DNA of 64,000 nucleotides from a virus, in the IMG/VR virus record IMGVR_UViG_3300017991_000064, positions 32,001 to 96,000 of that record, one strand, 5' to 3'. This document shows, one piece after another, positions 23,361 to 41,915 of the stretch; the stretch's first letter is position 1; each line of letters begins with the position of its first letter. Below the pieces are notes generated by a model. It saw nothing but the letters and a program-made list of their open reading frames with translations. It was not told the DNA's origin and did not search any database. The translations under genes were made by a program, and so were the position numbers.

Positions 23361-23372
23361 TCAAACCCCCCT

Positions 23373-23449
23373 TGCCAGAATGACAAAACAGTACCAAGAT
23401 TTCATTTGTTAGGTTTACCAGTGGAAATCCTTAACTTAAATCTCAACGA
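23373..23449 (+). repeat. Dispersed ~78-bp intergenic element, copy D
   Basis: TGCCAGAATGAC...CAGTGGAAATCCTTAACTTAAATCTCAACGA. Its 3' half matches copy C. Confidence 0.7.
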
Positions 23450-23643: not shown

Positions 23644-23645
23644 CG

Positions 23646-23676
23646 GAAATGGGATAGAGAATGAACTCTATCCCAT
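23646..23676 (-). terminator. Hairpin / terminator after the holin-like gene
   Basis: ATGGGATAGAG/CTCTATCCCAT 11-bp perfect stem with a short T tract. Confidence 0.6.
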
Positions 23677-23716
23677 AACCATGCTCCAAAATATCGTAAC
23701 GTATGTACGACCTGAA

Positions 23717-24181: not shown

Positions 24182-24236
24182 TGTGTTCACCTCCGTTTAT
24201 GTATGTAATCTAATGGTTTACTTATGATTCCTTGTG

Positions 24237-24461
24237 TCACCTCCGTCCCATGTAATATTTGCATCTAATGCATCTTCCTTTCTGTTTATCCTTTAACCCT
24301 TTCCTAAAGTTCCATTTGCCACAATTGTTGCATTTCCGCATGGTAGCTCTTTTCTTAATGGCCCACTTCAAAGAACTAAATGGCGCTTTCACAATTCCTA
24401 CAACTAGATCCTTCGGACTAATGAAGATTCCATGCCCTCGTCTATTGTTAAGAAATTTCAT
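24237..24461 (-). CDS. Small Zn-ribbon protein
   Basis: CNNC...CIRC, basic composition. Confidence 0.5.
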   Translation of the reverse strand: MKFLNNRRGHGIFISPKDLVVGIVKAPFSSLKWAIKKRATMRKCNNCGKWNFRKGLKDKQKGRCIRCKYYMGRR

Positions 24462-25033
24462 TCCTTCCCCTCCTTTACGAACTTGGGAAGATAGATAAGA
24501 TTCAATTTGTTGATTCGATTACTAACTCCGTAGTAGATACTATAGGTCCATATCCTCTTCCGTACGAGAGCAATGTTGTATTTATCTCTCATGTCATTAA
24601 AGAAGGCTGCAAATCTTTCTACAACAACATTGCTGTAATGATCCTCTCCTCCCAAACAATCTTCTACCGCCTTAAGTGTAATGGGACCTATGAGTCCATC
24701 CATTCTTAGCTGAAGGTCATACTTAATGTTGAGACATTGTTGCATGAGACGAATGGATGTATGTGGTGATGCATTGTAGGCAAAGTCCATTACACAGATA
24801 TCTAACCCTGATGGTAACTCTGAGCATTTGGCCTTTTGCCATCGTGGCATGTATACCTCCTCGAATACTGTTGACATCCTCAAGGTTTTATTCTTAATCT
24901 GTTCAGCATACTGAGGATACGCTCGTGATGAAACGCCATACATTGTTGTGCCACCTGGATCATCAGGATCATTACTCCAGTATCCCTCAAATTCCATTAG
25001 AACCGGCCAAAATTTCTTTTCGTTCCCTCTCAT
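24458..25033 (-). CDS. Endolysin, glycoside hydrolase family 108 with PG-binding domain
   Basis: EGYWSNDPDDPGGTTMYGVS, D.AYN and DGLIGP.T. Confidence 0.9.
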   Translation of the reverse strand: MRGNEKKFWPVLMEFEGYWSNDPDDPGGTTMYGVSSRAYPQYAEQIKNKTLRMSTVFEEVYMPRWQKAKCSELPSGLDICVMDFAYNASPHTSIRLMQQCLNIKYDLQLRMDGLIGPITLKAVEDCLGGEDHYSNVVVERFAAFFNDMRDKYNIALVRKRIWTYSIYYGVSNRINKLNLIYLPKFVKEGKE

Positions 25034-25055
25034 TGTGTCACCTCCATTTTATGTT

Positions 25056-25511
25056 TCATTCTGGTGTAAACCATTCTTTTATGATTTTTGACCAGGTAAG
25101 TTGATTACTTTCATTAGGCATTCCCATCACTAGATTCGTATGGTGTGAAAATAATTGGAGATACATATTATAAAGTGTGGTGGAATACATAAGCACTAAT
25201 GATCTGGGATTTAGCATGATAAACTGATCTAGAATAAATAGATCTGCCTTAACCTCATCCTTACTAAAATTCATCTCATGGGTCATAGCTGTTGAGATAA
25301 TTAATAGGTTAGGGTGGGAATCGGTAGCTTCATATATTGTATCAAAACGTTCAATCTCAAACTGTAGATTACAATTGATGGAACATACTTTGAGAAGTTT
25401 TAGAAAGAATTTGTAGTCTACATAGTCATCATACAAATCATCATAACCAGATTCAATAAAAACAGCAGTTCTGATAGAACCATTGGATGTTTCATTCATA
25501 ATGTTTAACAT
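25056..25511 (-). CDS. Hypothetical protein, possible degenerate receiver fold
   Basis: AVFIE...HPNLLIIS...LVLMYS strand spacing resembles REC, but the phospho-acceptor Asp is missing. Confidence 0.35.
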   Translation of the reverse strand: MLNIMNETSNGSIRTAVFIESGYDDLYDDYVDYKFFLKLLKVCSINCNLQFEIERFDTIYEATDSHPNLLIISTAMTHEMNFSKDEVKADLFILDQFIMLNPRSLVLMYSTTLYNMYLQLFSHHTNLVMGMPNESNQLTWSKIIKEWFTPE

Positions 25512-26414: not shown

Positions 26415-26921
26415 TTAGATCTGTTCATCATCCGGTAGGAAAACATTTTCAATTGCTGAAATGGAGGCCTCGATTCGTGAAGCCATAGATTGGGCCTTGT
26501 CCATCATCTGTTCTCCGTTAGTGATTAGATCAAGAGCATTCATTATTCTTTTATGAACCTCACCCATATGAGCATTCTTAGGAATAATGGTAATACAATT
26601 TCTACCTCGTAGTTCCTCGAGTATGAAACTTTCTGAAACACAAGTGTAAATAACAACTGGGGTGGTTACTCCGGAGTCACGAAGTTCAATGAGAAAATCC
26701 AAGCCAGCTCTACTGTTACCATTGATTCGGATATCGAGCACCAGAAGATCATGTGTCTGAACTTTCATACACTCTCTTGCAGTGAGAACATCCATTGCCC
26801 AATCTACCTGGAGCTTTGCATAATCATCTGGTACTATTTCCTCCAGATATCTTGTCCAGATTCTTCTCATAATGTGTTCATCTTCCATGAATAGGATACG
26901 ATATTTTCCATCCTTTGTCAT
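26415..26921 (-). CDS. Stand-alone response regulator receiver (CheY-like)
   Basis: ILFMEDE, DLLVLD(63)IRI, AGLDFL, PVVIYT and IIPK. All catalytic positions are present; there is no DNA-binding domain. Confidence 0.85.
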   Translation of the reverse strand: MTKDGKYRILFMEDEHIMRRIWTRYLEEIVPDDYAKLQVDWAMDVLTARECMKVQTHDLLVLDIRINGNSRAGLDFLIELRDSGVTTPVVIYTCVSESFILEELRGRNCITIIPKNAHMGEVHKRIMNALDLITNGEQMMDKAQSMASRIEASISAIENVFLPDDEQI

Positions 26922-26932: not shown

Positions 26933-27373
26933 TTAAACTCCAATGAAATACTTAATTAGAAGTAGAGAGACAGCACCAAGGATACCCCAAAGATACTTGG
27001 AGAAGTGTTCCTTAAAACGATGCTTCTTATCTTCCTTAGTCTCTCTAGCTTCAGTATTCTTTTGTACCTTCTGAAACAGGTCGAACTCGTTAATCTTTTC
27101 CATTAATGCACATTGTCCGGTCATACAGGTATGCATCTGTTTCTTTTCAAGGTCTCTAAGAACCTGACGAACAGATTTCTCAAACATCTCAATGTTGTGC
27201 TTGATGTTGGTAAACTCTAGTTCGTCATCTTTACTCTGCAATTCCATCTGATGAATCTTATTTTTAAGAGCCTCAATCCCCTCAAGGAGTTTTTCTAGTC
27301 TTTCAGGTAACCCTGACATCTGACCCATGAATTGATTCATCTTATCTTGTATTGTAATAGGATCACCTGGCAT
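26933..27373 (-). CDS. Coiled-coil protein with C-terminal TM helix (holin-like)
   Basis: Coiled coil followed by YLWGILGAVSLLLIKYFIGV. It is the first gene after the fibre genes. Confidence 0.5.
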   Translation of the reverse strand: MPGDPITIQDKMNQFMGQMSGLPERLEKLLEGIEALKNKIHQMELQSKDDELEFTNIKHNIEMFEKSVRQVLRDLEKKQMHTCMTGQCALMEKINEFDLFQKVQKNTEARETKEDKKHRFKEHFSKYLWGILGAVSLLLIKYFIGV

Positions 27374-27455: not shown

Positions 27456-30400
27456 TTACGGGTTACTTGCTTCTGTTGCCGTCCATGTTATTTCTCTTGA
27501 ACCACCAGTATTGTCAACAACATAGTAAATGAACCCATCTTTATCAGCTTCCTGAACCCCAAATGAGCCACCTATATACATCCATGACATACCACTGTAA
27601 TATGATTTGGGAGTAATGGTAACTATAACATCATCACTACCAAATGCAGTGCTAAAAGAAACTTCTGTTGTTGTGTATGTACCCATACTGGCATTTATCT
27701 CATCTGTTCCACTCTTGACAGTAGGAATCACAAGTTCAACATCATCAATCTTGTATACACCAGTAATGTTGATATTACCGTCCACATCAAGAACTTCAGC
27801 AGGTGCAAGATCATTGATACCAACCTTACCCCCCATGATTGCCATAGTGCTTGCTTGTGTAAGTGTCGGTGTTGTATTATAGTCTAAACTGAAACCAATT
27901 GAATACTGAGCATCTGAATCCGTAGTACCTACAATTATTCCGGCTCCTAATGCTATAGAATTTGCACTTCTAGCCGTGTTAGATGCTCCCAATGCTACAG
28001 AATTTGCACCAGAAGCAGTTGACCCGCTTCCAATTGAAAGTGAATAAGCACCAGTAGCATCAGCCTGATTGCCAACAGCAAATGAGTATATGCCAGATGC
28101 TTTTGTGTTATATCCCAACGCATTGGAAAGAAAGCCGATATTGGCATCATCCCAGTCTGTAGATGAACTACGACCTGCTCTAAAAGCTCCTTTTGACTTA
28201 TCAAAGAAAAATCTATAGTCATGGTCAGAATCACCATCATCGGCAAGTTGCGGTGAACCCCATACAAAATCATCAGTTGAATATGTTACTTCACTGGAGT
28301 TTGCCCTGACAACAGTACCGGCTTTTTCCCAGTATGAAGTTCCACCGCCACCGGCAGCAAGTTCAGCAAGGGTTTTATCCCCTGTAACTCCGTCTGATAG
28401 TACAAGATTTCCACTGCCATCTTGGAATAGGTCAAATGAGCCAGAACCACCATGAAATGCCGTTGCTTCAATAGTTCCTGAAACTTCCAGTGTTCCAGAT
28501 GGGGGGTTGATTGTATCTGACCTCAAGGCTGTTGCTTCAACAGTACCACCTACAGAAAGCTCATATGAGGGAGTCAGGTCTGCAATACCAACCTTACCTC
28601 TCATAATTGCTAAAGTATTGTCCTGAGAAAGAGTTGAAGATGAAGCAGCAAGATTGATAAGCATTGAGTTATCTGCACTACTATCAACAGTAGCATTACA
28701 ACCCAAAGCAACACCATTACCCCCGTTGGCATTATTACCATAACCAAGAGCAACACCGCCCCAACCTGCAACCTCACACTGATAACCGATAGCAGTTGCA
28801 TAATTGTTTGTAGCCTGTGACTGATACCCCATAGCTACAGCAGCATCAGCGGTAGCATCAGAAGCATATCCAGCGGCAAAAGCATAACTGTCACTGGCAG
28901 CACAATCATCACCGAAAGCAGCCGACCATGATCCTCTGTTAGCATCATCCCAATTCACAGAGTTACAGTACCCAGCCCGGAAAGCAGCTTTACTATCATC
29001 AAAGAAAAACCGCCTGTCTTTGGTTGCGTGTATCTGTCTGTTAAGTGTTGGAGAACCAAACACAAAGTCATTATTGTAGGTTGTATCTGATTCCCTGACC
29101 ACATCTGAATCTTCCTCAAAGACACCACCTGCTACTGCTTCACTTGTCCATTCTCCAGAAGCATCATCATAGGTTAAAACATCATTATCAGAAGGATTTG
29201 ATACATCTACATCAGATAGATCATCAAGTGTTACTGATGAAAGTATTGTATTAACCTCATCCGTTAAACCTACATACTGACCCTCAAGATAAACAGCTTT
29301 CAAAGTACCTTCGACTTCGACTGATCCGGCATTAAGATAAAGTTTTTGATTTGCTACACTATTATCAAAAATACCGTAAATCAATGAAGTATCACGAGCG
29401 TTTGATTCACTATCACGAGGATAAATGTCAATAAAGAGTTTATTACTCCCCGTTTCATAATACCCTGCATCATTACCAAGAAAGATATTATTTGATCCGG
29501 TAGTGTTAGTATAACCAGCACGATAACCTAATGCTGTATTAGCATTACCAGAGGTAATATTTGTCAAGCTATTATACCCGATTGCAGTATTTTTATTACT
29601 ATTACAATCAGCTAATGCTAATGAACCTATAGCTGTATTCTCATCTCCGGTGGTCACAGTATTTAATGAGTTATAACCTACTCCAACATTACTGAACCCC
29701 TCGGTGATTTCCGTTCCAGCATAAGCACCTATTCCGGTATTATTATAGCCACTGGTAACATCTTGTAGAGTATAGCTTCCGATACCTATATTGCTCTGAC
29801 CCGTTTGAGTAAAATTACCAGCCTGAACACCAAGAAATAATGAAGACCCAGAACCTGTGTAAGTATGAAGCAATCTTTCACCATTCTGGGATATAACTCC
29901 TACATATTGCCCTGATGTAGTAGGTAAACTTGCATATCCAGTAATTTCAAGAGAATCAACCTTAACATTGCCAACATTATTATTGACAATATCATCTCCA
30001 TCAGCATCCCAATATGTAGTACCTGCTACTGCTTCACTTGTCCATTCTCCAGTTCCAGAGTCATAAACAAGAGCCTCACCGTCCTCTGGGGAAGCAACAT
30101 TGACATCACCAAGATCATTCAAGTCAAGATCAATAGCAGCAATAGCGGTTTCGATTGTGGAATCCGCTTCCGCTTTGGTATAGGTTTCTGATTCAGTGTA
30201 ATAACGATTGTCCAACTGTCCATTGTCAAGTTCCGTCTGCGTGTAAACCTCTGTAGAGTTGTAACTGTAAGAATCTATTACACCTTCAATCTCGGCATCC
30301 GTTCTGATCTTGCCATCAATGACAGCCTGAGAGTAGGTATATGCTTCGATGGTACTGTCTGTTTGAGCTTTAGTATAAGCATCAACAGCAGGAATAACCT

Positions 30401-32093
30401 CTGATGTCCACTCACCAGTTCCGCCATCATAGGTCAATACATCATTGTCACTTGGAGCAGAAACATTAACATCAGACAGTCCTGCAAGATCTTTGTTCCA
30501 AACTTCAACCGTCCACTCTCCGGGTGTATGTGCATATCTTAAATAAGCATCGTCAAAACCGGGATAAGTGCTTGCATCAACATCTGATAGATTGTCGAGT
30601 GATTGGAGTATGTAATTACCAGTTGGGATATATACTCCTGTTGTTGAGTCCTTTTGATACCAACCTTCTGCCATTGGTACACCTTTTGTATCATCAGTGA
30701 ACAATACTTGACTATTATCAGTAGTAATAGTTTCATCCCATGATGCACCATTATATTCATAGATATTTCCAGCAGTCCAACCGTTACCTGCAACTAAACA
30801 AGCATAACGATCACCTGTGGATGGTGCAATAGGAAGAATACCAGCAGCAACCCAAGCATTGAGGACATCAGGATATATAATTTGCTGTTCATCTTTGGTG
30901 TATACCTCAGTAGAGTTGTAGCTGTAGGAATCAATGATAGTTTCAACTTCTGATGTATTTGTACCACTTGCTATAGCTTCACTTGTCCATTCACCGGAAG
31001 CAGTATCATAAGTAAGAACATCATTATCACTGGGGGCAGAAACATTAACATCAGAAAGATCACCTAATGCATAGTTCGCAAGTGCAGTATCAATCTCAGA
31101 TTTACTGTATGCATAGGTTTCAATGGTGCTGTCCGTTTCTGCTTTTGTATAGGTGGTTGTCGTATCTGCCTTATCATCCAGCAAATTATCAGTTTCTGTT
31201 TGCGTGTAGACCTCTGTAGAATTGTAGGAGTAGGCATCAATGATATTTTCTACAGTAGAATCTAAATCAGTAATGGTGTCAGCCTGATTTACAATACCGT
31301 CATCATTAGTATCATAAGTAGACTTCTCCATATCACCTGTACCAATAGCAGGTTTATTGGTGACATTATCCCAGTGAAGTTGTGCCTGTCCTGATGTCTG
31401 CATATTTGTCTGTGTGTAGTAATCAGCAGGGTCAATATAAGCCTCAATGGTTGAATCTGTTTCAGCCTTTGTATACACATCTGAGGCACTAGCAAAATCT
31501 GATACAGCGGAACCACTATCCTTGATATTGCCAGAGGCATCAAGAGATACAAGGTTGTCCTCTGTACCTGCTGAAACTATATCTGCTTTGTCATCCAACA
31601 GATTATCTGTTTCTGTTTCAGAATAAGCATAGGTTTCTATTGTAGAATCTGTTTCTGCTTTGGTATATACATCTGTTGCATTGGCCTTATCATCCAGTAA
31701 ATTGTCTGTTTCTGTTTGAGTATAGACATCAGCTTTAGGATAAGCATAGGCTTCAACTGTTGCATCTACCTCAACCTTAGTGTAAGTAGTAATTACATCA
31801 GCTTTATCATCCAACAGATTATTGGTTTCAGTCTGAGTATAATAATCTGAGGGATCAATGTAAGCCTCGATTGTAGCATCTACCTGAGTTCTAGTATACC
31901 CCTCTGCCGTATCCAAGAAGTTTTCATCTACTTCTGGAGCCAACTTGTCCAGTGTAACTGCTGTATCCTGAATAGAATCAGTTACAACTGTATCTTCTGG
32001 GGCATCAGGGGGATTTCTCAACCCCAATACTGGAAGACACAGCGACAGCAAAATTAATGTAATGAGTGTTAAGCGTTTGTACTTGTCGTTCAT
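27456..32093 (-). CDS. Giant fibre/adhesin-like repeat protein with signal peptide (1545 aa)
   Basis: Signal-like N-terminus, YTKAETD repeats, LDDLSDV..P.D..VL.YD...GEW repeats, NTAIGY and YadA-head-like (A.G..S.A.G) repeats, and an H-type-lectin-like C-terminus. Confidence 0.75.
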   Translation of the reverse strand: MNDKYKRLTLITLILLSLCLPVLGLRNPPDAPEDTVVTDSIQDTAVTLDKLAPEVDENFLDTAEGYTRTQVDATIEAYIDPSDYYTQTETNNLLDDKADVITTYTKVEVDATVEAYAYPKADVYTQTETDNLLDDKANATDVYTKAETDSTIETYAYSETETDNLLDDKADIVSAGTEDNLVSLDASGNIKDSGSAVSDFASASDVYTKAETDSTIEAYIDPADYYTQTNMQTSGQAQLHWDNVTNKPAIGTGDMEKSTYDTNDDGIVNQADTITDLDSTVENIIDAYSYNSTEVYTQTETDNLLDDKADTTTTYTKAETDSTIETYAYSKSEIDTALANYALGDLSDVNVSAPSDNDVLTYDTASGEWTSEAIASGTNTSEVETIIDSYSYNSTEVYTKDEQQIIYPDVLNAWVAAGILPIAPSTGDRYACLVAGNGWTAGNIYEYNGASWDETITTDNSQVLFTDDTKGVPMAEGWYQKDSTTGVYIPTGNYILQSLDNLSDVDASTYPGFDDAYLRYAHTPGEWTVEVWNKDLAGLSDVNVSAPSDNDVLTYDGGTGEWTSEVIPAVDAYTKAQTDSTIEAYTYSQAVIDGKIRTDAEIEGVIDSYSYNSTEVYTQTELDNGQLDNRYYTESETYTKAEADSTIETAIAAIDLDLNDLGDVNVASPEDGEALVYDSGTGEWTSEAVAGTTYWDADGDDIVNNNVGNVKVDSLEITGYASLPTTSGQYVGVISQNGERLLHTYTGSGSSLFLGVQAGNFTQTGQSNIGIGSYTLQDVTSGYNNTGIGAYAGTEITEGFSNVGVGYNSLNTVTTGDENTAIGSLALADCNSNKNTAIGYNSLTNITSGNANTALGYRAGYTNTTGSNNIFLGNDAGYYETGSNKLFIDIYPRDSESNARDTSLIYGIFDNSVANQKLYLNAGSVEVEGTLKAVYLEGQYVGLTDEVNTILSSVTLDDLSDVDVSNPSDNDVLTYDDASGEWTSEAVAGGVFEEDSDVVRESDTTYNNDFVFGSPTLNRQIHATKDRRFFFDDSKAAFRAGYCNSVNWDDANRGSWSAAFGDDCAASDSYAFAAGYASDATADAAVAMGYQSQATNNYATAIGYQCEVAGWGGVALGYGNNANGGNGVALGCNATVDSSADNSMLINLAASSSTLSQDNTLAIMRGKVGIADLTPSYELSVGGTVEATALRSDTINPPSGTLEVSGTIEATAFHGGSGSFDLFQDGSGNLVLSDGVTGDKTLAELAAGGGGTSYWEKAGTVVRANSSEVTYSTDDFVWGSPQLADDGDSDHDYRFFFDKSKGAFRAGRSSSTDWDDANIGFLSNALGYNTKASGIYSFAVGNQADATGAYSLSIGSGSTASGANSVALGASNTARSANSIALGAGIIVGTTDSDAQYSIGFSLDYNTTPTLTQASTMAIMGGKVGINDLAPAEVLDVDGNINITGVYKIDDVELVIPTVKSGTDEINASMGTYTTTEVSFSTAFGSDDVIVTITPKSYYSGMSWMYIGGSFGVQEADKDGFIYYVVDNTGGSREITWTATEASNP

Positions 32094-32104
32094 TTCATCC
32101 CCCT

Positions 32105-35100
32105 TTACAGGTTTTCATCGTATGAGTAATAAATGGTAATGGCTTCACCACCACTTAAACCCGTAATAACAACATTGTGTTTATCCCCGCTGATAGTAAA
32201 ATCAGAAGGATAATATTGAATGGTGTCATCAACTGTAACCCACGGAATACCTTCCATCTTCCTTGAGGCATCAGCATCACATGGATAATTGGTTACACCA
32301 TTAACACCTACTTCCAGTGTCCAGCCGTTGACGATCTTTGGAATCTTTCTTGCTATCCACTGATTAGAATTATTCCTGATAAGAATTTCATCAGAAGCAA
32401 CTCCCAAGATACTTACATCATTGAGATCGGCAAGTGTAATAGCAGCAGCGAAAGTTTCAATAGTGGAATCAGTTTCCGCTTTGGTGTAAACCTCTGTGCT
32501 GTTATAAGAATAATCGTCAATGATACCTTCTATTTCAGCATCCGTTCTGATCTTGCCATCAATGACAGCCTGAGAGTAAGTGTATGCTTCAATAGTTGAA
32601 TCTGTTTCAGACTTTGTATATATTTCTGTGCTGTTGTAACTGTAGGCATCAATAACCGTTTCTACATCACTCGCATCCAGTATCACATCATTATCAAGAT
32701 GTGTCCTGATTTCAGCAGCGGTGGAGTTATTCACACCATCATACACAACCTCTGCGGAATCGGATATGCCGTTGTCGTTTTTGTCATACTGAGCCTTGAG
32801 CATATCACCAGCACCTGTGACAGTTTCCGATGTCCATTCTCCTGCTCCATCATCCCAAACTAAAGATTCACCATCACTGGGAGTGGAAACATTGACATTA
32901 GAGAGGTCATTGAGAACCCGATTGTCTATCTCTGTTTTTGTATAAACCTCAGTAGAGTTATACGAGTAATCATCAATGATACCTTCTATTTCAGAAGTGG
33001 TTTTTCCTGATGGAGCATCAACATTTTCCCATTCAGAGGCACTGTCATTCCATGCCATCATCTGACCATCTGTAGCACTGCCTACATTGACATCCCCGAG
33101 ATCATCAATGCTTGCATCAGCAATAACGGCTTCAATGGCAGTCTTTGAAAGCAGTGTTACAGTACCACCACCAGTAAATGTCCCACCGTTATCAAGGAAT
33201 GATGAATAAGTTTCGGAATCCATTGGATGTCCACCGCTTCCAGAAATATTTCCACCCTTCCACTTACAGTCAATTAGACCGCCCGGTGGAATGTAATCGG
33301 TGAATGTTCCATCAATACCATTACTGATTTCACACTGTACCAGTCTGCCATATGAAGCTACCTCTATGGTTTCATCAAATTCACAGTTCTGGGCCTCAAG
33401 AAGATTTCCAGCAGAGGCATCCATATCAAATGCAGCATCAAACATACAATCACGCAGGAACATATTAAGGTTGCCAGCATTGCCAGAACCATCCATATCC
33501 CCGATAACCTTCAACTGATTTGCATGGAACTCTTTGCTGGAAGAAGCCCCACCTGACCAGTTGATATCACCAGACACTATGAATCCACAACCATATGAGG
33601 GGTGAGTTGTAGAAGTGGTGGAAGGGGTCAGCGTTCCAATATAGAAAGTTTGTCTGCGTTCCCCGTAATCCTGAGTATCATCAAAGTTTATTGTGATATC
33701 TCTCGGAGTAGTTGAGGCATAGTATGTTCCAACACCATCACCGAGAACAACCGGGCCTATACCAATCAAGGACACACTGATATTTATACCCACTGACAGG
33801 CTTTCATCATACCTTCCAGCATAAATCAAGATAACATCCCTTTGAGCAAGCTCTGTGGCCCCACTGGAAGGTTGTGTGATATTACTCAATGCTCCCTGTA
33901 TAGTTTTCCACGGGAATCTCTCTGAACCATCCTCGGTATAAGAATCGGTACGGTTTCCATCAACCCACTGAACCCTTGTAACCTCATAAGTATCAGTTAT
34001 AAGGTTACTGATATCAGTGTTCTTCCACTCAGAACTTACAGCATCCCAATACATCACCTGATCCTGTTGTAATGAGGTAAATGAAACATCACCAAGATCA
34101 TTCAGGTCAAGATCAACCAGTTTTGTAATGGTAAGTGCTGCTCCTGTTATGGCCCCATTGTCAGCGAACCACTTTGCAGATACATCATCCATTGTGCAGG
34201 TTTTTGGTGCTGAAAGATTAATTTCCGTTTTTCGGAAGAAACAATCAGTGAAATTACCTACAGCATAAGTTGTATCAAAGTTATTGCACTCAATCTCCAC
34301 GGTATTATTAGCTCCCCACTCATCAGAACTAAACTGACAATCACGGATGCTAACTATGGTAGAGGCATCAAAATCCGGCCCCATGAACCTACAACCCTTA
34401 ACCTGCTGCCAGTAAAAAGATGAACCCGTTACTGATCCAGACACTGAACTATCTTTCATATAGATAACACTTGTACCAGTACCAGACTCTTCTGAAAAAT
34501 CTCCAGTAATCCTTGTATGGGTTAAGATTCTATCATGGGTTGTCGACCCTGTTTTCCCTGATTCAACCTGTAAGTGCAAATTACCGTCAATGGTAAAACC
34601 AGACTGCTTAGAAGGATGAGTTCCGTTCCCAAAAGCTATCCCATTAAAAGAAGGAACAGCCCGGAAGGTTCCAGAGGATACCCCGTACTCATACTCAGCA
34701 GCTATCTCCTGCGTAACATTTCCAGTGAAAGTAACCCCACCTACAATATGCTGAATAGAACGATAAGGAACTATCTCACTACCTGTAAGTGTGTATTCAC
34801 CCGGAGCAAAGATAGCCTTAAACCTCTGCTGATACTCTGCTGCTGATCCAGCCTGTCCAATTTCAGTCCAGAGCTTGCCCGGAGTAGCCCACGGATTAGA
34901 GAATGAACCATCACCAGTTGTATCGTTCCCGTTTGGAGCAATATAGTATGTCCTATAGAAGCTGGTATCCATTGAGATAGCTTCACTTGTCCATTCACTT
35001 TCGGAGTCATTCCAAACAAGGCTTTCCCCATCAGAAGGAGATGATACATTAACATCATCCAGATCATTCAGATTAACAGGAACCTCAGCTGTATCGGCTT

Positions 35101-37579
35101 TATCAATATCAAGCTGGTCGATTGCTGCTTTAACATTGGCCCCGGTAACTGTTCCACTGTATACAACCCTTGAAGCATCATCCACATAGGTTGTAGCAGA
35201 GGGGGTTCCACCTGACAGGCTAGAACTTGCATCCAGATAGAGATTTGCCGGAGTAGTACAGTGAATCTCCGATTTGTCAAAACCATAGATTGTAGCACTT
35301 CCGTCATTTAGAGTCAGTGCTTTTGTACCGCCCCATTTCTTGACATTATGGCAAACAACTATACACTCATGTCCACCACAAGAAATAGCATTACCATTAG
35401 CACTAGCACCACCTGTGATATATCCTACATTACTTAATTCAATGTAATTATCACCTGATGCAGTATACAAAGAACCAGAGGTACTATTACGGCAGTAGAT
35501 AATGAGGTTTTCAAACTTAACATTATCACCATACCATGCTCCGGCTCCATTAGACCAGAACAAAGTAGTTCCAACTACAGTATCGCTTAATACCCCTCTG
35601 AAAGTAATGTTTGAAACATCCTTTGAAGCAGGAGTAAAAGCAATCTGTCCACTACAAACTATTGTTCCACCGCCCTTAGAAGCAACATAATCAATAGCAT
35701 TGTGGATATTGGAATAATCAGCACCAGAAGAAGCACAGGTAACTGTTACATTGGTTTTGGAAGCATCAGGAATAGAACCGATACTAGCCCCACTGTCCTT
35801 GATGTTACCCGAACCATCAATTGTAACTACATTGTTCTCAGTGCCTCCACTGATGATATCTGCTTTATCATCCAGCAAATTGTCTGTTTCAGTCTGAGTG
35901 TATATCTCAGTGCTGTTGTATGAATAATCATCAATGATTGTTTCAACCTCTGATGTGTTTGTCCCGCTGGCTACACTACTGTTCTGCCATTCTCCCGCCC
36001 CATCATTCCAGACAAGAGCCTGACCATCTGTGGGGGAACCAGCATTGACATCGGACAGATCATCGAGGACTGCTGATGTATCCAGTTTCCCGGAAAGTTC
36101 AGTGCTGATTTTATCGGATGACCAGACCTCTGCAACATCAGTAGTACTGTCATCAAGTTCACGGGGTCTGTAGTTTTCCCCCAGTGTGCCGGAGTTCAAA
36201 AGGGTCAGACTGCCACGGGGGAGGTGCTGAACAAAGTTCACACCATAATGCGCCCCCCAACTCGGTTTTGATCCTGCATCATCCCAGTCAACAGTAATGT
36301 CACCGGAAGATTCAGAACCCTCATACCAGATACCAGCCGTCTGCTCATAGAGCATATCGCCTGTTATGTAGGTATTCTGGTAATCAATTCCATTTACAAT
36401 ATTGGAATGGATTGATTTTGAACCCCCAAGGCGGCAGTCCATAAACTGAAGCTCATTACCGCCCAGACTTGTTCCAGCTATACCTTGAATAAGAACACCG
36501 TATTCTCCGGCATCAGTGGACTGAATGGAAAAGCCCTTGATCTTCATATCCCACGGTTCTGGGTCAACACCGTTGTCGGCTATGATAAGGGCATTACCAG
36601 CATAATGCCACTGAGAAACACCTTGACCGTATCCAATCAAATGAATCCCCGCCATGTCCACAGTAACCTGTTCGGTAAATTTTCCGAGAATATCAATAAC
36701 CACCGGGTCAATGGCTGTAGGTGTCATTGTTTCAGCGACAGAATAAGCATGAGCGATAGTAAGGAAAGGATCAATTTCAGAACCTGTTCCAGCATCACTA
36801 CCGTCTATCCGTACATACAGAACTCGGTGTGCTTCTTTTACCACATCAATAATCGAATCAATTTCAGATTCAGAATAAGCATATGCTTCAATGGTTGCAT
36901 CAGTTTCTGCTTTGGTATAAGCTACACCAACATCTGCTTTACCCGAAAGAAGTGAATCAACTTCACCACTATTGTAAAGGTCACTCTTTGTATAATAATC
37001 AGAAGCACCAAAACCTGAATCGGAAGCATCACCACCTGCGGTAAGTCCAACAAAGTTACCGGGAACTGGCCCCGTAACCTGATTCATCTTGCCAGTAATC
37101 TCAATATCAAGATCAGTAATATTGACCTCAACATTGTCATCCTTAAAAAAGAGTTTTCCAGTAACGGGATCAAACCATGCTAAAGCTGAAGTTGTGCCAA
37201 TCTCAACCGTATTAGCTTTCAGGGTATGACATTCGACTGTAGTTACCGCTGATAACTTTTGACATTCCAGAGTGCCGAGATTAGTAATAGCAAGACCATC
37301 AAAATCCCAGTCAGCAGTAGGTTCGTGCGTACCATCCCTGCGAGTATAGTCGCTAAGGTCAACTTCAACTGTTACCCCAGAGATATCAGTAACATAAAGG
37401 TGTTCGACCTCTATTGTACCGAAAACATTTGCTTCTCTAGTTCCTTCCCGAATAAGCCTATCAGTTGGCATAGAGTCAACATCTATTCTAGTCCCTGGTA
37501 TTGGTACCAGACAGAAAGCACTCTGTATAGTTACCAGGAGGAACAGGAAAGCAAGCCATAAAATTTTTCCACGTGTCAT
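32105..37579 (-). CDS. Giant fibre/adhesin-like protein with signal peptide and beta-helix modules (1824 aa)
   Basis: Signal-like N-terminus. Repeated YV...G.D..G.GS...P[FW].T pectin-lyase-like module starts. Same linker repeats as the neighbouring gene. Confidence 0.75.
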   Translation of the reverse strand: MTRGKILWLAFLFLLVTIQSAFCLVPIPGTRIDVDSMPTDRLIREGTREANVFGTIEVEHLYVTDISGVTVEVDLSDYTRRDGTHEPTADWDFDGLAITNLGTLECQKLSAVTTVECHTLKANTVEIGTTSALAWFDPVTGKLFFKDDNVEVNITDLDIEITGKMNQVTGPVPGNFVGLTAGGDASDSGFGASDYYTKSDLYNSGEVDSLLSGKADVGVAYTKAETDATIEAYAYSESEIDSIIDVVKEAHRVLYVRIDGSDAGTGSEIDPFLTIAHAYSVAETMTPTAIDPVVIDILGKFTEQVTVDMAGIHLIGYGQGVSQWHYAGNALIIADNGVDPEPWDMKIKGFSIQSTDAGEYGVLIQGIAGTSLGGNELQFMDCRLGGSKSIHSNIVNGIDYQNTYITGDMLYEQTAGIWYEGSESSGDITVDWDDAGSKPSWGAHYGVNFVQHLPRGSLTLLNSGTLGENYRPRELDDSTTDVAEVWSSDKISTELSGKLDTSAVLDDLSDVNAGSPTDGQALVWNDGAGEWQNSSVASGTNTSEVETIIDDYSYNSTEIYTQTETDNLLDDKADIISGGTENNVVTIDGSGNIKDSGASIGSIPDASKTNVTVTCASSGADYSNIHNAIDYVASKGGGTIVCSGQIAFTPASKDVSNITFRGVLSDTVVGTTLFWSNGAGAWYGDNVKFENLIIYCRNSTSGSLYTASGDNYIELSNVGYITGGASANGNAISCGGHECIVVCHNVKKWGGTKALTLNDGSATIYGFDKSEIHCTTPANLYLDASSSLSGGTPSATTYVDDASRVVYSGTVTGANVKAAIDQLDIDKADTAEVPVNLNDLDDVNVSSPSDGESLVWNDSESEWTSEAISMDTSFYRTYYIAPNGNDTTGDGSFSNPWATPGKLWTEIGQAGSAAEYQQRFKAIFAPGEYTLTGSEIVPYRSIQHIVGGVTFTGNVTQEIAAEYEYGVSSGTFRAVPSFNGIAFGNGTHPSKQSGFTIDGNLHLQVESGKTGSTTHDRILTHTRITGDFSEESGTGTSVIYMKDSSVSGSVTGSSFYWQQVKGCRFMGPDFDASTIVSIRDCQFSSDEWGANNTVEIECNNFDTTYAVGNFTDCFFRKTEINLSAPKTCTMDDVSAKWFADNGAITGAALTITKLVDLDLNDLGDVSFTSLQQDQVMYWDAVSSEWKNTDISNLITDTYEVTRVQWVDGNRTDSYTEDGSERFPWKTIQGALSNITQPSSGATELAQRDVILIYAGRYDESLSVGINISVSLIGIGPVVLGDGVGTYYASTTPRDITINFDDTQDYGERRQTFYIGTLTPSTTSTTHPSYGCGFIVSGDINWSGGASSSKEFHANQLKVIGDMDGSGNAGNLNMFLRDCMFDAAFDMDASAGNLLEAQNCEFDETIEVASYGRLVQCEISNGIDGTFTDYIPPGGLIDCKWKGGNISGSGGHPMDSETYSSFLDNGGTFTGGGTVTLLSKTAIEAVIADASIDDLGDVNVGSATDGQMMAWNDSASEWENVDAPSGKTTSEIEGIIDDYSYNSTEVYTKTEIDNRVLNDLSNVNVSTPSDGESLVWDDGAGEWTSETVTGAGDMLKAQYDKNDNGISDSAEVVYDGVNNSTAAEIRTHLDNDVILDASDVETVIDAYSYNSTEIYTKSETDSTIEAYTYSQAVIDGKIRTDAEIEGIIDDYSYNSTEVYTKAETDSTIETFAAAITLADLNDVSILGVASDEILIRNNSNQWIARKIPKIVNGWTLEVGVNGVTNYPCDADASRKMEGIPWVTVDDTIQYYPSDFTISGDKHNVVITGLSGGEAITIYYSYDENL

Positions 37580-37599
37580 AATATTTCTTCCTCCTTACA

Positions 37600-38022
37600 T
37601 TACTTCTTGTAAAGCACTATTACGTTCTGACCAGCAGTTAATGCCGGAGTAAATGTAATAGTGGGGTTTGGGGAAGCAGCTTTGTCTATAGTGTATACAC
37701 CAGTGAGAGGTTGTACTGTGCCTCCTATCTCCCATACAATAGCCCTATTCTCATGCGGGGTTCCATCCGTTAGTGGATAGGTAGCACTACCATCACCATT
37801 AACTTCACAGAATCCCATTCCGTGGCCGGGAATAGCAGCAGCCAGCCCCAACCGTACTGAACCATCACTTTCATCAACTATCTTCCCTAGTATCTCATCT
37901 AGGTTTGTCTTCTCACCAATATCACCATCGGGTAATGGAGTATCAGTGAACTTAACTGTTAGATTCCTGTTGGCTACTAAGTAAATAAACTTGAGTAGCT
38001 TATCAAGAGCCCATTTGCTCAT
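37600..38022 (-). CDS. Small putative virion protein
   Basis: IGEKTNLDE motif shared with 38134..38475, and an Ig-like C-terminus (ITFTPAL.AGQNV). Confidence 0.5.
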   Translation of the reverse strand: MSKWALDKLLKFIYLVANRNLTVKFTDTPLPDGDIGEKTNLDEILGKIVDESDGSVRLGLAAAIPGHGMGFCEVNGDGSATYPLTDGTPHENRAIVWEIGGTVQPLTGVYTIDKAASPNPTITFTPALTAGQNVIVLYKK

Positions 38023-38092
38023 GTATTCCTCCCATGAAATTTATCGTTTGAAAATCTTTATTGGCATCGAGTATTGCAGATTTCGTTAGATA

Positions 38093-38120
38093 GGGGTTGG
38101 CCTGAGATTAGACCAACCCC
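38093..38120 (-). terminator. Hairpin / terminator
   Basis: GGGGTTGGTCT/AGGCCAACCCC stem. Confidence 0.55.
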
Positions 38121-38133
38121 ATTGATCGATCTC

Positions 38134-38475
38134 TTAGGTTAGTTGAACTTTTCTTTGATCACCGGAAGCCAGCCTGGTGACCAACCAGAGAGCATCGGCC
38201 CCTGAAGTATCATACCACAGGACGGATTGTCCATCAACAGCAAGAGTGGGTTCAGCAGCAGCAGACACGAGAGGAGGAACCATAGCAGCGCTACCTTTAA
38301 GATTCACCCTCAGAGCATGGTTACCCTCATCATGAGCCAACCTCAGAAATTCATCGAGGTTGGTAGATTCACCGATAGCATCCACCGATGCAGCAGCACC
38401 ATCAGCTACCACGTTAATCGCACCCTTGGTCTGATCGAACACATCCAGTAAGATCGAGTCAGCAGTTCTTCCCAT
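38134..38475 (-). CDS. Small putative virion protein
   Basis: IGESTNLDE motif, strong RBS and its own hairpin terminator. Confidence 0.5.
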   Translation of the reverse strand: MGRTADSILLDVFDQTKGAINVVADGAAASVDAIGESTNLDEFLRLAHDEGNHALRVNLKGSAAMVPPLVSAAAEPTLAVDGQSVLWYDTSGADALWLVTRLASGDQRKVQLT

Positions 38476-38657: not shown

Positions 38658-41600
38658 CTAGATATTGTCTTCAATTTTCTTTAGTTTCAGAGGATAAATG
38701 TTATTGTTCTCCTTATCCAAGAAGAGAATCTGAAGACCTAACTCAGTAGTTTTCACTACCTTCATGTATCCATTTGCTACATCCGTAAGGTCAGTCCCGG
38801 AGATGATCTGGATAGACATAATGGTGCCATCCGGATTAGTTATCCAAAGTTGTACGTTACCTGTAACACCGTCATTCACCAAGATGAAAATTCTACCATC
38901 AGCAACAGTTCCCCCAATAATGTTTGCTTTTATAGCAGTTATGGTAGAATTCAATTCTCCGCGATCACTAAATACCATGAAGTCAAACACATGTGCAGAT
39001 GCTACATCGAAGTGTAATTGTCTACTCTTATTCTCAAGACCTAAGTACCAGGTAGCAAATTCTGTACTCGGACTGGTACCACTATGTATAATGGCTACCT
39101 TAGCCACCGAAAGATCCCTAAGAGCAAGTCTAAGGCCGACCACTCTATAAAGATTAGCTGGAGTGGTGTCTGTAGAGTAGTTAGCACTTATGAACCTAAC
39201 AAGAGAGTCTCCAACCAACCTATTCATAACATTCAGACTGTTACCCGTAACATCACCACCTGTAAGGTCATAAGAATCTATTAGATACTCTAAGGAATCT
39301 ACAGACGCTAAAGCAACAGTGGTCTTGAAGGAAAAGTCATATAAGTAAACCATCCAATGATCTACCCCAATAGCTTCAGCATTCAAACTGACCCAGCTAA
39401 AGATCAAATTACCCTCTTGGCTCATTACCTTCAAACCATCAACCGAACCACTTGTAGCTACACCATTCCACCAGGTTACCGTCTTCACAATTGATTGAGA
39501 CAATGAGAGGGTTCCCATATCTACAGCCAGGGCTCTCATTTTATAATCTGTCCCAGTTAAACCCCCCATTAAGAGGTACATATTATTAGCTACGAAGATA
39601 GCATCACTAAGTTCCACATTTGATAATGCCTCAATAACAAATGATTCGGTCGATGATAAGGTTCCTGAATCAATGTCAATAATATGAGCATAGAGAGTAT
39701 TGGTATCGAATTTGAAGAGGATCACATAGTTCTGATACCAACCATACTTGTCAGATATATTTGTATCCCCCGTATCTATATCATCAACCAGTGACATATC
39801 CTTATCATACAGATAAAGATGCCCATTAGCCTTATTTAGAACCATGATATACTCTGGGTGGTCTAAGAATCTGATATCAGTACCTGCAAAGGATACAGCA
39901 GACCCCAATATGGGATAATATTGTCCATTACAGATGTCCATTGTTGATTTCAAAGGTTCATCGATATATTTCATCCTACCCAATAGAGTATCTGAAGTAA
40001 CTACTCCTAGATGACCTATGCTTGGTACCATGAGTAGAGTATCATCCACTAAGCTACCAGAGGGAGATTCTGACTTTACATAGTCAAGTTGATTAACCAA
40101 GACATCATATTGAGCATGACTATGTAAAGCATCAGCAGAACTACCACCAACAAGAGTAGCAAACTGTGTTCTCTGGATAGCCGTCAATTCCCACCGCTTT
40201 AGGAAAGATGGTGTTGTTTGTACTATGTATAGATCCCAGTCATCAACTGAAGCAGAGCCCATCATTGACAGAACCAGGACTGGTACATCATCCAAAGCTT
40301 CGAATACCCAACCGCTAGCAGTATCGGTAGCAATCTGTTGTGGATAACTTGCCCAGGCACCAGTGGGAGAATCAAGGATCAAATATCTTTTATCATCCCC
40401 GGCAGGTGTAGGTGGAGTATTTGAAGCATCGTAAACTGGAAGAATCATTGGCATCTTGAGGAATGACTCAAGGTTCTTAGCGAAGTAGCCAGTAGAAGAC
40501 TTAAACACCCAGTAACGATAGTTCTCTTGTTTAGTACTATCCATCTTTGATAGAACCAGAACAGGAACAGTATACTGCTGGAACTGCCAACCTCCTGCGC
40601 CATCAATAGCAATCTCGCAAGGATGACCATTCCAATCTCCAGTAGGATTATCCAGAGTAAGATATCTTTTGTTATCTGCTGCTGATACTGGAGGTGTATT
40701 TGAAGCGTCCTCAACAGCTTCTACAGTAGCAGGATTATCGCCAATGGCTGCTATGATTGCAGCATATTCCGCCGCTGTAATCTTTTTGTATGCAGATCCC
40801 TGTTGAACCTCATCCATCGTGACCAGTTCAGATACCTTCTGAGTATAACCTGATGGATTAGATTTGAAGATGTAGAATCTCCAATTTGTTTTGGTTGCTG
40901 TATTCTCTTTTGACAGAACCAGTGTATCATCTGTAAAGTCAAAGAATTCCCATCCACCAACAGCATCCTTTGCTACCTGGTAAGCATGACCATTCCAATC
41001 TCCAGTAGGAGAATCAGAGCAGAGATAAAGTTTATTATCCTGGGCGGCAGCCGGGGGTGTATTAGAGATGTACTCCACTGGAGAGATACAAGGAACCTTC
41101 AATCCAAGATAGGTAGTAAGGTTCTTGTAAACTGTACCACTTATATGCCCATAGGTGGCACTATCTGAATCCACCTCAATTGAAAGAGTGTCATTGTGCA
41201 CCATCGTGGATCCAGCATTGAAGATTCCTGTCGCAGTCTGTACAGCCTTCATCTTTGGAGCGGGAGTTGGTTGATCAGCATCCAGGTCCAGGAAGAAGGT
41301 AGCATGATCAAAGGAGTAGAAGGTCCAGGTAGAACTCCCATCGGATACAGCCAGTTCGTAATTGTGATTTAGAAATGCTCCTGTGCCAGCACTTCCTACC
41401 ATTATCCTTAATCCTGCAGCATGAGCTGGCGGTGTATTGGTAACATATGAAACCGGGAATACCATGGGGCCCATGTTTCCAACGGCCTCAACTACACCAC
41501 TATAGCGATCGATATCAGGTACGCTGTCAACCGACAATGGGCCGGTACTGATTGATGCCAGAATGATATCTGTTGCTACCAGTTCTCCGGATGTTACGGA

Positions 41601-41915
41601 TAGAATGTCCATCCATTCATTGACCTGCGGTTTCCATTCAAACCGTGCTATAATGTATTCATCACCTGGGTCCGATGTTACATCGTAGTTCAATGTGGTA
41701 CTGATATTGATGAGCCCGGGATCCCCCGCCTTATCAAGTATAGCCACCTTGAAAGGAGGAACTCTTACATCAGATCCACTCACAAAGGGAATTCCATCCC
41801 TTCCCAGAATCCCAGCATTTAGAACATGTTCGAATACATACTTGAGTACGTCACCTTTGTACTCAGATCCGTATTTACCAAAAACTTTCTGACCAGCGAT
41901 ATTAGTAGCACCCAT
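38658..41915 (-). CDS. Tail fibre / baseplate-attached protein with four DUF2793-like repeats
   Basis: Repeats of NTPP...D.KRYL....PTG.W.GH...IA....GGW.F and a beta-rich C-terminus. Follows the baseplate genes. Confidence 0.65.
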   Translation of the reverse strand: MGATNIAGQKVFGKYGSEYKGDVLKYVFEHVLNAGILGRDGIPFVSGSDVRVPPFKVAILDKAGDPGLINISTTLNYDVTSDPGDEYIIARFEWKPQVNEWMDILSVTSGELVATDIILASISTGPLSVDSVPDIDRYSGVVEAVGNMGPMVFPVSYVTNTPPAHAAGLRIMVGSAGTGAFLNHNYELAVSDGSSTWTFYSFDHATFFLDLDADQPTPAPKMKAVQTATGIFNAGSTMVHNDTLSIEVDSDSATYGHISGTVYKNLTTYLGLKVPCISPVEYISNTPPAAAQDNKLYLCSDSPTGDWNGHAYQVAKDAVGGWEFFDFTDDTLVLSKENTATKTNWRFYIFKSNPSGYTQKVSELVTMDEVQQGSAYKKITAAEYAAIIAAIGDNPATVEAVEDASNTPPVSAADNKRYLTLDNPTGDWNGHPCEIAIDGAGGWQFQQYTVPVLVLSKMDSTKQENYRYWVFKSSTGYFAKNLESFLKMPMILPVYDASNTPPTPAGDDKRYLILDSPTGAWASYPQQIATDTASGWVFEALDDVPVLVLSMMGSASVDDWDLYIVQTTPSFLKRWELTAIQRTQFATLVGGSSADALHSHAQYDVLVNQLDYVKSESPSGSLVDDTLLMVPSIGHLGVVTSDTLLGRMKYIDEPLKSTMDICNGQYYPILGSAVSFAGTDIRFLDHPEYIMVLNKANGHLYLYDKDMSLVDDIDTGDTNISDKYGWYQNYVILFKFDTNTLYAHIIDIDSGTLSSTESFVIEALSNVELSDAIFVANNMYLLMGGLTGTDYKMRALAVDMGTLSLSQSIVKTVTWWNGVATSGSVDGLKVMSQEGNLIFSWVSLNAEAIGVDHWMVYLYDFSFKTTVALASVDSLEYLIDSYDLTGGDVTGNSLNVMNRLVGDSLVRFISANYSTDTTPANLYRVVGLRLALRDLSVAKVAIIHSGTSPSTEFATWYLGLENKSRQLHFDVASAHVFDFMVFSDRGELNSTITAIKANIIGGTVADGRIFILVNDGVTGNVQLWITNPDGTIMSIQIISGTDLTDVANGYMKVVKTTELGLQILFLDKENNNIYPLKLKKIEDNI

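Follow-up and report, generated by a model that had tools for sequence, protein, structure and literature searches.

Sec-type signal sequences on two giant fibre-like proteins that close a myovirus tail operon suggest export from the infected cell's cytoplasm

P0001 and P0002 are two giant fibre-like proteins that close the tail operon of a myovirus. Since both start with real-looking Sec-type signal sequences that are kept by relatives in other phages, they are probably exported from the cytoplasm of the infected cell. The fuller reading, export through Sec and signal peptidase I followed by action at the envelope of that cell, is put forward tentatively and as a whole falls slightly short of an even chance.

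The window (a stretch of 64,000 nucleotides) belongs to a complete 107-kb myovirus genome and contains the minus-strand virion operon. This operon starts with the major head protein (60020-61468), which is followed by the adaptor, the sheath (53054-54955), the tube, the hub and the baseplate, with baseplate proteins at 42335-47081. Distal to the baseplate lie a 1085-aa fibre, two small ORFs, P0002 and P0001, and then the lysis genes:

38658..41915, minus strand: conventional 1085-aa tail fibre without signal (DUF2793; Pfam, PHROG, N-terminus), candidate cytoplasm-assembled receptor-binding fibre
37600..38475, minus strand: two small ORFs of 140 and 113 aa, paralogous to each other, which separate the 1085-aa fibre from P0002, without Pfam or PHROG match
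32105..37579, minus strand: P0002 gene, 1824-aa modular fibre- or spike-like protein with predicted signal (ORF, translation, PHROG fibre-type matches only, relatives P0003-P0007)
27456..32093, minus strand: P0001 gene, 1545-aa fibre- or adhesin-like protein with predicted signal (ORF, translation, Pfam YadA_head, PHROG tail spike 4636)
26933..27373, minus strand: coiled-coil protein of 146 aa, transmembrane segment at its C-terminus, encoded immediately after P0001, without family match

Both ORFs are confirmed with the limits given in an earlier note on this DNA, and the gene order places them last in the tail module. P0002 and P0001 are tightly coupled (gap of 11 nt) and together cost about 10 kb, or 9.5% of the genome. 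The lysis region beyond P0001 encodes a GH108 endolysin (24458-25033), and no spanin was recognised in it. The sheath is only ~25% identical to those of known phages, so there is no cultured relative or host to draw on. Megablast and tblastn searches with the region and with P0002 against 50,697 phage records gave no match. Scans of IMG/VR with P0002, P0001, the relative P0007, an alignment of the N-terminal module described below and a 726-aa baseplate-region protein returned motif-level matches or none; the last of these has no homologue beyond its own genome pair. A scan of bacterial species genomes yielded only an uninformative 29-residue motif match in Limnohabitans.

The N-termini and start sites of the two proteins are characterised by the following features:

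37590..37596, minus strand: Shine-Dalgarno sequence AAGGAGG upstream of the P0002 start (sequence)
37511..37579, minus strand: predicted P0002 signal peptide, residues 1-23, with R3 and K5 in the n-region, a 13-residue h-region and a c-region ending A-F-C (hydropathy, AlphaFold2 helix 2-20, signals of the same kind in 10 relatives)
32098..32104, minus strand: Shine-Dalgarno sequence AGGGGGA just past the P0002 stop, ahead of P0001 (sequence)
32022..32093, minus strand: predicted P0001 signal peptide, residues 1-24, with K4, K6 and R7 in the n-region, an h-region at 8-20 and candidate cleavage after C19 or G24 (hydropathy, sequence)

Both proteins take on the n/h/c layout that the earlier note had described. 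A positively charged n-region is followed by an uncharged 13-residue hydrophobic core (Kyte-Doolittle 11-residue maximum ~3.0) and by candidate sites with small residues at -3/-1 (S/A..C before Leu, or V..G) that are weaker than those of the relatives described below. The exact cleavage sites proposed at that time are plausible but are not the sole candidates; cleavage of P0001 after G24 would leave an Arg at +2. Both ATGs are preceded by strong Shine-Dalgarno sequences (AAGGAGG and AAGGGGGA). True starts downstream of the hydrophobic segments were looked for as well, and none of the internal ATG/TTG candidates of either gene is preceded by a Shine-Dalgarno sequence. A dual start, in which an internal start would yield a signal-less isoform, is rejected for this reason. 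Signal-like N-termini are found in about 4 non-lysis ORFs of the ~139 in the genome, and all other virion proteins of the phage lack them. This includes the 1085-aa fibre, which has no such segment and for which the absence of a signal had already been stated. Given this rarity and the conservation in ten relatives, a chance origin of both signals is unlikely.

All ten distinct relatives that share the N-terminal module of P0002 carry a signal (P0003, P0004, P0005, P0007, P0123, P0134, P0135, P0138, P0139 and P0141); the earlier note had proposed to check homologues for this. Their signal sequences diverge, yet all retain the hydrophobic core, an Ala at -1 and one of I/V/A/G at -3. The cores measure 11-13 residues and lead into polar c-regions that end in V-x-A, I-x-A or A-x-A, and sequence conservation begins directly after the predicted cleavage site.

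These relatives bear on the question of whether the N-terminal helix is cleaved at all. Within the family, the c-regions are least canonical in the two window proteins, with C or G at -1. Together with flanking residues, the hydrophobic stretch of these two comes to 18-22 residues, so an uncleaved anchor is possible. The helix would then act as a signal-anchor in the inner membrane or as a structural hydrophobic element of a cytoplasmic fibre. The first AlphaFold2 model fits this, as helix 2-20 runs on into a disordered linker, with low confidence for residues 22-130 of the N-terminal module. The short cores and V-x-A, I-x-A or A-x-A ends of the relatives, however, are the signature of cleavage and not of an anchor. 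Moreover, the helix retains its physicochemical pattern but not its sequence, which a structural interface would preserve. The cores are also rich in Leu, Ile and Phe, unlike signal-arrest-release (SAR) domains, and a SAR domain was rejected on that ground. Retention of the helix is therefore considered unlikely.

Still less probable, to the point of being far-fetched, is a lipoprotein route, in which signal peptidase II would cut before Cys19 of P0001 and Cys23 of P0002 and leave both proteins lipid-anchored. The hydrophobic core does end with a Cys in P0001, P0002, P0005, P0135 and P0138, but the preceding residues in the window proteins (L-S-L and S-A-F) misfit the lipobox [LVI][ASTVI][GAS]C, and seven relatives combine the absence of this Cys with clean A-x-A ends. 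Sorting by T9SS or sortase was rejected too, as there is no family match and no LPXTG motif was seen by eye.

The signal is followed at once by a conserved module:

37100..37510, minus strand: conserved N-terminal module, residues 24 to ~160, always after the signal, holding the fibre motif DYT-R/K-RDGT..PT.DW.F (alignments, N-termini; AlphaFold2 monomer confidence low)

In an exhaustive HMMER search with P0002 residues 1-450, about a dozen proteins and no others matched the module itself (the first ~220 residues); contigs were looked up for nine of them and measure 6-64 kb. This search detected no relation between the module and any surface-anchor domain of bacteria. In a set of 143 fibre-like representatives, the signal is confined to carriers of this module. 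It is absent from relatives with other N-termini, and the fibre-like proteins P0006 and P0124-P0133 share modules with P0001 and P0002 and are yet signal-less.

P0004 (2334 aa) is one of the ten signal-bearing relatives, and its start on contig L003 is the only place at which the tail context of a relative was read. It occupies the fibre slot of an unrelated siphovirus-type tail and begins 2 nt past the preceding gene; none of the proteins in that tail module is common to the tail of the window phage. P0004 is collinear with P0002 and P0001 joined, so the window phage has one fibre divided between two genes, each with its own signal. P0002 is also collinear with P0005 and P0007. The export proposed in the earlier note thus receives comparative support at the sequence level: the signal is kept together with the module, is absent with other N-termini and stands on both halves of the split fibre.

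The same comparison addresses the origin of the genes. They may be morons, captured bacterial adhesin genes that keep their bacterial signal and serve the host or hitchhike. A precedent for such a placement is lambda lom, a signal-bearing outer-membrane protein gene within the tail region. The YadA-like modules of P0001 have >1000 bacterial relatives on Mb-size contigs, with annotations that read "tail fiber domain-containing protein" or trimeric autotransporter adhesin. Most of these relatives have signals, which also speaks for export. Against capture, the combination of signal and N-terminal module is found only on contigs of 6-64 kb and never on large bacterial ones; the closest relatives (44-73% identity) are in this small-contig set, as opposed to 28-36% for the bacterial ones. 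The two genes are further co-transcribed in the late operon, with no obvious promoter/terminator island. A moron origin is quite unlikely on this evidence.

Behind the N-terminal module, both proteins are mosaics:

36170..36832, minus strand: right-handed parallel β-helix module A, P0002 residues 250-470 (AlphaFold2 pLDDT >90; Foldseek)
32105..36067, minus strand: remainder of P0002 from residue 505 (motif map; collinearity with P0004, P0005 and P0007)
27834..30014, minus strand: YadA-head-like left-handed β-roll repeats, P0001 residues ~694-832, 980-1180 and 1260-1420 (PF05658 in 4 stretches, phrog_4636, PDB 1p9h, 7o23 and 3wp8)

The predicted structure of β-helix A resembles carbohydrate esterases and tailspikes: pectin methylesterases (E 3e-5) head the Foldseek matches, and phage tailspikes follow further down. 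The remainder of P0002 is punctuated by five L-x-D-L-x-D-V...W...EW linker motifs at residues 505, 837, 1159, 1556 and 1716. The stretches between these motifs hold three more putative β-helix modules, fibre repeats of the YSYNSTEVY type and a small tip domain at the C-terminus. The AlphaFold2 model of residues 590-1160 (modules B and C; 5 sequences) reached a pLDDT of 33. In P0001, the YadA_head family PF05658 is matched with 39.6 bits against a cut-off of 25, and the PDB matches to the repeats are the heads of YadA, BpaC and AtaA. These repeats were not detected in P0002. The earlier note had assigned β-helix modules and YadA-head repeats to both proteins; of this, the YadA repeats stand for the 1545-aa protein only, and a β-helix is demonstrated only for residues 250-470 of the 1824-aa protein. 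The C-terminal YadA anchor barrel PF03895 gave no match at E<=0.01, the NCBIfam YadA match is confined to head positions and scores 24 bits where the cut-off is 750, and the Pfam S74 chaperone-protease domain is absent from both proteins.

This architecture can be compared with three known groups. With trimeric autotransporter adhesins (YadA, BpaC, AtaA) the proteins share the N-terminal Sec signal and, in P0001, the YadA-head β-roll repeats. They differ in having neither a C-terminal YadA anchor barrel nor a long coiled-coil stalk, and type Vc secretion is not available to them because the barrel is absent. With the P22 and CBA120 tailspikes, phi29 gp12 and the lambda Stf slot they have in common that they come last in the tail module, as well as the right-handed β-helix, linker repeats and mosaic exchange of modules between phages. 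Known tailspikes and fibres, however, are without a signal peptide and dock to the virion in the cytoplasm through their N-terminal domains, whereas here the N-terminal module stands behind a conserved signal and is common to unrelated tail types. The third group comprises the mosaic adhesive trimer (MAT) fibres of Bdellovibrio bacteriovorus, whose surface location on a diderm cell has been shown experimentally (Caulton et al. 2024, PMC10769870). They display the same succession of a signal, a conserved N-domain immediately behind it, a long phage-tail-fibre-like trimer and swappable tips (PMC10769870), with the trimer being assumed for P0001 and P0002. In contrast, MAT genes are chromosomal genes of a predator and not part of a phage tail operon, and in the phage proteins S74 is missing and the place of the MAT shaft is taken by β-helix modules of esterase-like type and by YadA-like heads. 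A PDB search with P0001 and P0002 gave no MAT match, and with HMMER the N-terminal module matched no bacterial protein.

Exported phage proteins of other kinds have been published. Endolysins with signal peptides or SAR domains (fOg44 Lys44, P1 Lyz) use the host Sec system (PMC6116005), Porphyromonas phages have signal-bearing genes (PMC10367356), and prophages encode carbohydrate-active enzymes (CAZymes) with signals, in a survey that deliberately left out structural genes (PMC13507307). None of these is a fibre-like protein of a tail module. For tailed phages, export of fibres from the tail module has not been described in print: tail fibres with signal peptides did not turn up in the full-text literature search, and reviews name exported endolysins only. 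The word "unusual" in the earlier note is fair as far as print goes. Among late phage proteins, use of Sec is known only for those of lysis and for the products of a few accessory genes. PblA and PblB of the Streptococcus mitis phage SM1 are tail-fibre-like proteins that become surface adhesins; they are without signals and reach the surface after holin/lysin release.

In the reading that we favour, both proteins would carry functional, probably cleavable Sec-type (signal peptidase I) signals. After late synthesis from the tail operon, they would pass unfolded through the host SecYEG. The signals would be trimmed by host enzymes, because the phage genome, when searched for DsbA and S26 signal peptidase, was found to encode neither. 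Folding outside the cytoplasm would then give long modular fibres composed of linker repeats, glycan-esterase/lyase-like β-helices, YadA-head-like β-rolls and small tips; a trimeric state is assumed from the fold types. As the destination we infer the envelope of the infected cell, to which the fibres would be anchored or bound via the conserved module right after the signal. There they may serve as cell-bound adhesive or glycan-processing fibres of a design as in the Bdellovibrio MAT fibres. Plausible roles are the removal or masking of receptors or surface glycans, by which progeny would not be trapped and superinfection would be blocked, or the tethering of neighbouring host cells. The signal-less 1085-aa fibre would stay the cytoplasm-assembled receptor-binding fibre of the virion. 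We infer each of these elements, from export as such and cleavage to the trimeric state and the role at the envelope. The classical fibre slot, the ~10 kb cost and the mosaicism of the receptor-binding type speak against an envelope role, as does the need for a fibre of >1500 aa to cross or fit beneath the outer membrane.

The same observations can be accommodated if P0001 and P0002 are true virion fibres that are Sec-exported, trimmed and folded in the periplasm and that join cytoplasm-built baseplates at or just after lysis, once the holin opens the inner membrane. This alternative is possible, though somewhat doubtful. It would account for the tail-fibre slot in two unrelated phages and the tight coupling to tail genes, for the modules common to the signal-less fibre-like P0006 and P0124-P0133, and for the large size of the proteins together with the mosaicism of their family, a usual trait of virion receptor-binding proteins. 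By their language-model features, residues 1-170 lie nearest to viral fibre and baseplate N-terminal clusters, with scores <0.9 that are leads only and lend weak weight to virion attachment. More speculatively, as no spanin was recognised, the outer membrane might stay intact while virions mingle with the periplasm beneath it. The alternative nevertheless faces a topology problem, and assembly after lysis would suffer dilution. A signal-less 1085-aa fibre is already there, and the N-terminal module stands behind two unrelated tail types, myo- and sipho-type, without a shared partner, which argues mildly against specific docking to the baseplate. To our knowledge, heads, tails and fibres of the studied tailed phages are assembled in the cytoplasm, and there is no precedent for the docking of fibres after export.

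A conserved export signal on large mosaic proteins of the fibre slot means one of two things. Either the host-recognition apparatus partly matures outside the cytoplasm, a novel assembly route that would matter for phage engineering and for the expression of such fibres, or lytic phages spend ~10% of their genome on decorating or remodelling the envelope of a cell that is about to be killed. The first outcome, with P0001 and P0002 as real host-recognition fibres that are Sec-exported and dock after holin opening, would imply a two-compartment assembly in myovirus- and siphovirus-type relatives and appears rather unlikely. The envelope outcome would amount to a new class of phage-encoded surface fibre that is comparable to the MAT fibres of a predator. 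Annotation pipelines and host-range predictors count such genes as virion receptor-binding proteins and may be misled.

The cysteine content of P0002 (1.2%, compared to 0-1.1% in the other structural proteins, most of which have ≤0.7% and of which the sheath has 1.11%) was rejected as evidence of disulfide-dependent folding. The conserved cysteines of P0002 form a ladder of five, one per rung, and are not paired.

The source record is a single 106,874-bp IMG/VR virus record that is 100% complete by CheckV; the window covers its bases 32001-96000. It represents a myovirus that is distant from all cultured phages, with a sheath about 25% identical to those of known phages. The virion operon lies on the minus strand and ends with two small ORFs, the two giant fibre-like proteins P0002 and P0001, and a lysis region with a GH108 endolysin. 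In operon order, its main features are:

60020-61468, minus: major head protein, followed by the head-tail adaptor
53054-54955, minus: sheath, together with the tube and followed by hub and baseplate proteins
38658-41915, minus: DUF2793 fibre, 1085 aa, after the baseplate proteins
32105-37579, minus: P0002, 1824 aa, ATG start with AAGGAGG upstream
27456-32093, minus: P0001, 1545 aa, ATG start with AAGGGGGA upstream

A comparison with 50,697 phage records gave no match to either giant, at the nucleotide or the protein level. P0002 starts 20 nt past the preceding ORF and is separated from P0001 by 11 nt. Both N-termini take on the same layout, in which two to three Lys/Arg residues are followed by a 13-residue uncharged core of Leu/Ile/Phe and a short c-region whose -3/-1 residues are small but make only weaker candidate cleavage sites. 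The signal-like N-termini that the earlier note had described for both proteins are confirmed and exceed chance, as the n/h/c pattern sits at ATGs with a Shine-Dalgarno sequence and is kept in relatives. A true start beyond the hydrophobic segment, which the same note had considered, or a signal-less isoform is unlikely from the sequence, since no Shine-Dalgarno-like sequence precedes the in-frame ATG, GTG, or TTG codons within or just past this segment. A crude scan of the approximately 139 ORFs of the genome returned signal-like N-termini among the structural-module proteins for P0002 and P0001 only; the remaining matches were two small non-structural ORFs and holin-like membrane proteins. 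Signals are absent from all other virion proteins, including the 1085-aa DUF2793 fibre, as had been noted before. Besides the giants, textbook signal-like N-termini are found in a 152-aa ORF (window 18630-19088, plus strand), which has no Pfam or PHROG match, and in a 175-aa ORF beyond the window (genome 23115-23642, plus strand); with these two, at least four of the phage's proteins seem to be exported.

Relatives were sought with P0002 residues 1-480 and 1-450, by word matching among 5.8 billion proteins and by exhaustive HMMER comparison with 1.84 billion representatives. The N-module, the conserved segment directly after the P0002 signal, has few relatives in these searches (P0003, P0004, P0005, P0007, P0123, P0134, P0135, P0138, P0139, and P0141). 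All ten keep the signal: the start Met precedes one to three positive residues and a hydrophobic core of 11-18 residues, and the c-region ends with Ala at -1 and I/V/A/G at -3, the next residue being Glu, Asp, or Val. The signal sequences themselves cannot be aligned, and conservation starts directly after the predicted cut. Such a pattern would be expected for a working signal peptide rather than for a structural helix; a reading as an uncleaved anchor is given lower weight. The signal is tied to this one N-module. Among 143 representative matches with the fibre repeats or beta-helix of the query, it occurs on only six, all of them N-module carriers, and three further representatives that met the crude signal rule are visibly false positives. 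P0006, the one relative with a counterpart of P0002 residues 71-450 but no signal, has a different, longer N-terminus.

In P0002 the signal peptide is followed by the N-module, which harbors a common fibre motif around DYT-R/K-RDGT, and by a right-handed beta-helix (residues 250-470, predicted with pLDDT above 90). The closest structures to this helix are pectin methylesterases (Foldseek E 3e-5); phage tailspikes rank lower. A beta-helix cap motif of this kind also opens three more segments of putative fold, and a linker motif that occurs five times separates them; the remainder consists of fibre repeats and a small tip domain. Residues 1063-1128 (~34190-34393, minus) contain five cysteines spaced 15-19 residues apart and conserved in P0004, P0005, and P0007, which look like a one-per-rung ladder within a beta-helix rather than disulfide pairs.

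In P0001 the signal peptide is followed by fibre repeats over ~350 residues, and a globular insert then leads to three beta-roll regions of YadA-head-like type and a small C-terminal domain. The beta-roll regions score above the Pfam cut-off and match the YadA, BpaC, and AtaA heads in the PDB. P0001 has neither a YadA anchor nor an S74 domain. The giants were rejected as a trimeric autotransporter and as members of the mosaic adhesive trimer (MAT) fibres of Bdellovibrio. More than 1000 bacterial proteins are related to the YadA-like modules; most of these have signals, and many lie on contigs of Mb size from Bacteroidota, Limnobacter, and Alphaproteobacteria. Nine of the ten N-module relatives (all but P0139) lie on contigs of 6-64 kb, and none of these nine on a large bacterial contig; that the giants are captured bacterial adhesin genes carries lower weight. 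Six giant bacterial fibre-domain relatives of P0001 from alphaproteobacterial-type MAGs (P0016, P0022, P0023, P0073, P0079, and P0093) lack a classical signal and start with a conserved hydrophobic motif, RGN[VI]FF.LFGAV; this motif may serve the same fibre modules as another means of anchoring or export.

The post-signal segment of P0001 leads directly into fibre repeats, and the segment itself lacks an orthologue. The sole comparative support for its signal comes from P0004, a 2334-aa relative that is collinear with both P0002 (residues 5-540 at 50% identity, 810-1525 at 73%) and P0001 (403-1205 at 47%, 1199-1545 at 44%). By this alignment, the single signal-bearing gene of P0004 corresponds to two genes in the window phage, each with one signal. 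The 9.6-kb metagenome contig L003 (Ga0190359_1003154, 1-9615) ends within P0004 and encodes its first 92 residues identically, signal included. The gene starts 2 nt past the preceding ORF, and the genes 5′ of it encode a tape-measure protein, a lambda-K-like tail assembly protein, and a 947-aa J-like protein, a siphovirus-type tail module. Since the L003 proteins bear no resemblance to the tail proteins of the window phage, the signal and N-module, judged from this one relative's neighborhood, move between unrelated tail architectures with no visible partner.

The export part of the earlier interpretation stands as likely, given the conserved n/h/c pattern. The giants would probably be exported via Sec, cut by the signal peptidase I of the host, as the phage encodes no S26 peptidase, and folded outside the cytoplasm; DsbA is likewise not encoded. 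They are phage fibre or tailspike-like proteins, or MAT-like secreted fibres. As lipoproteins they were rejected, because their sequences do not match the lipobox. For their destination, which the earlier note had left between virion and cell surface, an envelope-bound role is preferred: the N-module is not bound to one baseplate type, a conventional signal-less fibre is also encoded, and the MAT fibres, whose layout is exactly that of the giants, are surface fibres on a diderm cell (PMC10769870). That the giants are virion parts is rather unlikely, even though they occupy the fibre slot, are tightly coupled to the tail genes, cost 10 kb, show mosaicism like receptor-binding proteins, and have an N-terminus whose language-model features weakly resemble those of viral fibre and baseplate N-termini. 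In the preferred envelope role, the esterase/lyase-like beta-helix modules would fit the removal of receptors or glycans on the infected cell.

No description of tail-module fibres with signal peptides turned up in full-text literature searches. Exported phage endolysins have been described (PMC6116005), and Porphyromonas phages carry signals on accessory, capsid, and spanin genes (PMC10367356). Signals are present on 5% of prophage CAZymes in a survey that left out structural genes (PMC13507307). Target proteins of phage DGRs lack signals, in contrast to the surface-displayed targets of bacterial DGRs (PMC6199706).

Several neighboring ORFs accompany the giants. Just upstream of P0002 lies a small paralogous pair (37600-38022 and 38134-38475, minus) with the common motif GE[KS]TNLDE and no family match for either; the C-terminal half of the 140-aa ORF is similar to the fibre family's small tip domain, and the pair could be chaperones or adaptors. 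For a 726-aa protein whose gene lies between those for the baseplate and the fibre (43217-45397, minus), the only homologue in 5.8 billion clustered proteins is on a second, near-identical contig of 106,760 bp. The stretch from the giants to the lysis genes also encodes a stand-alone response-regulator receiver domain (26415-26921, minus; PF00072, E 3.6e-12). The lysis region around the endolysin (22500-25100) harbors small holin-like membrane proteins, and neither a spanin pair nor a unimolecular spanin is recognizable there by eye. Directly 3′ of P0001, a 146-aa coiled-coil protein without a family match (26933-27373, minus) has one C-terminal transmembrane segment and could serve in lysis or in fibre handling.
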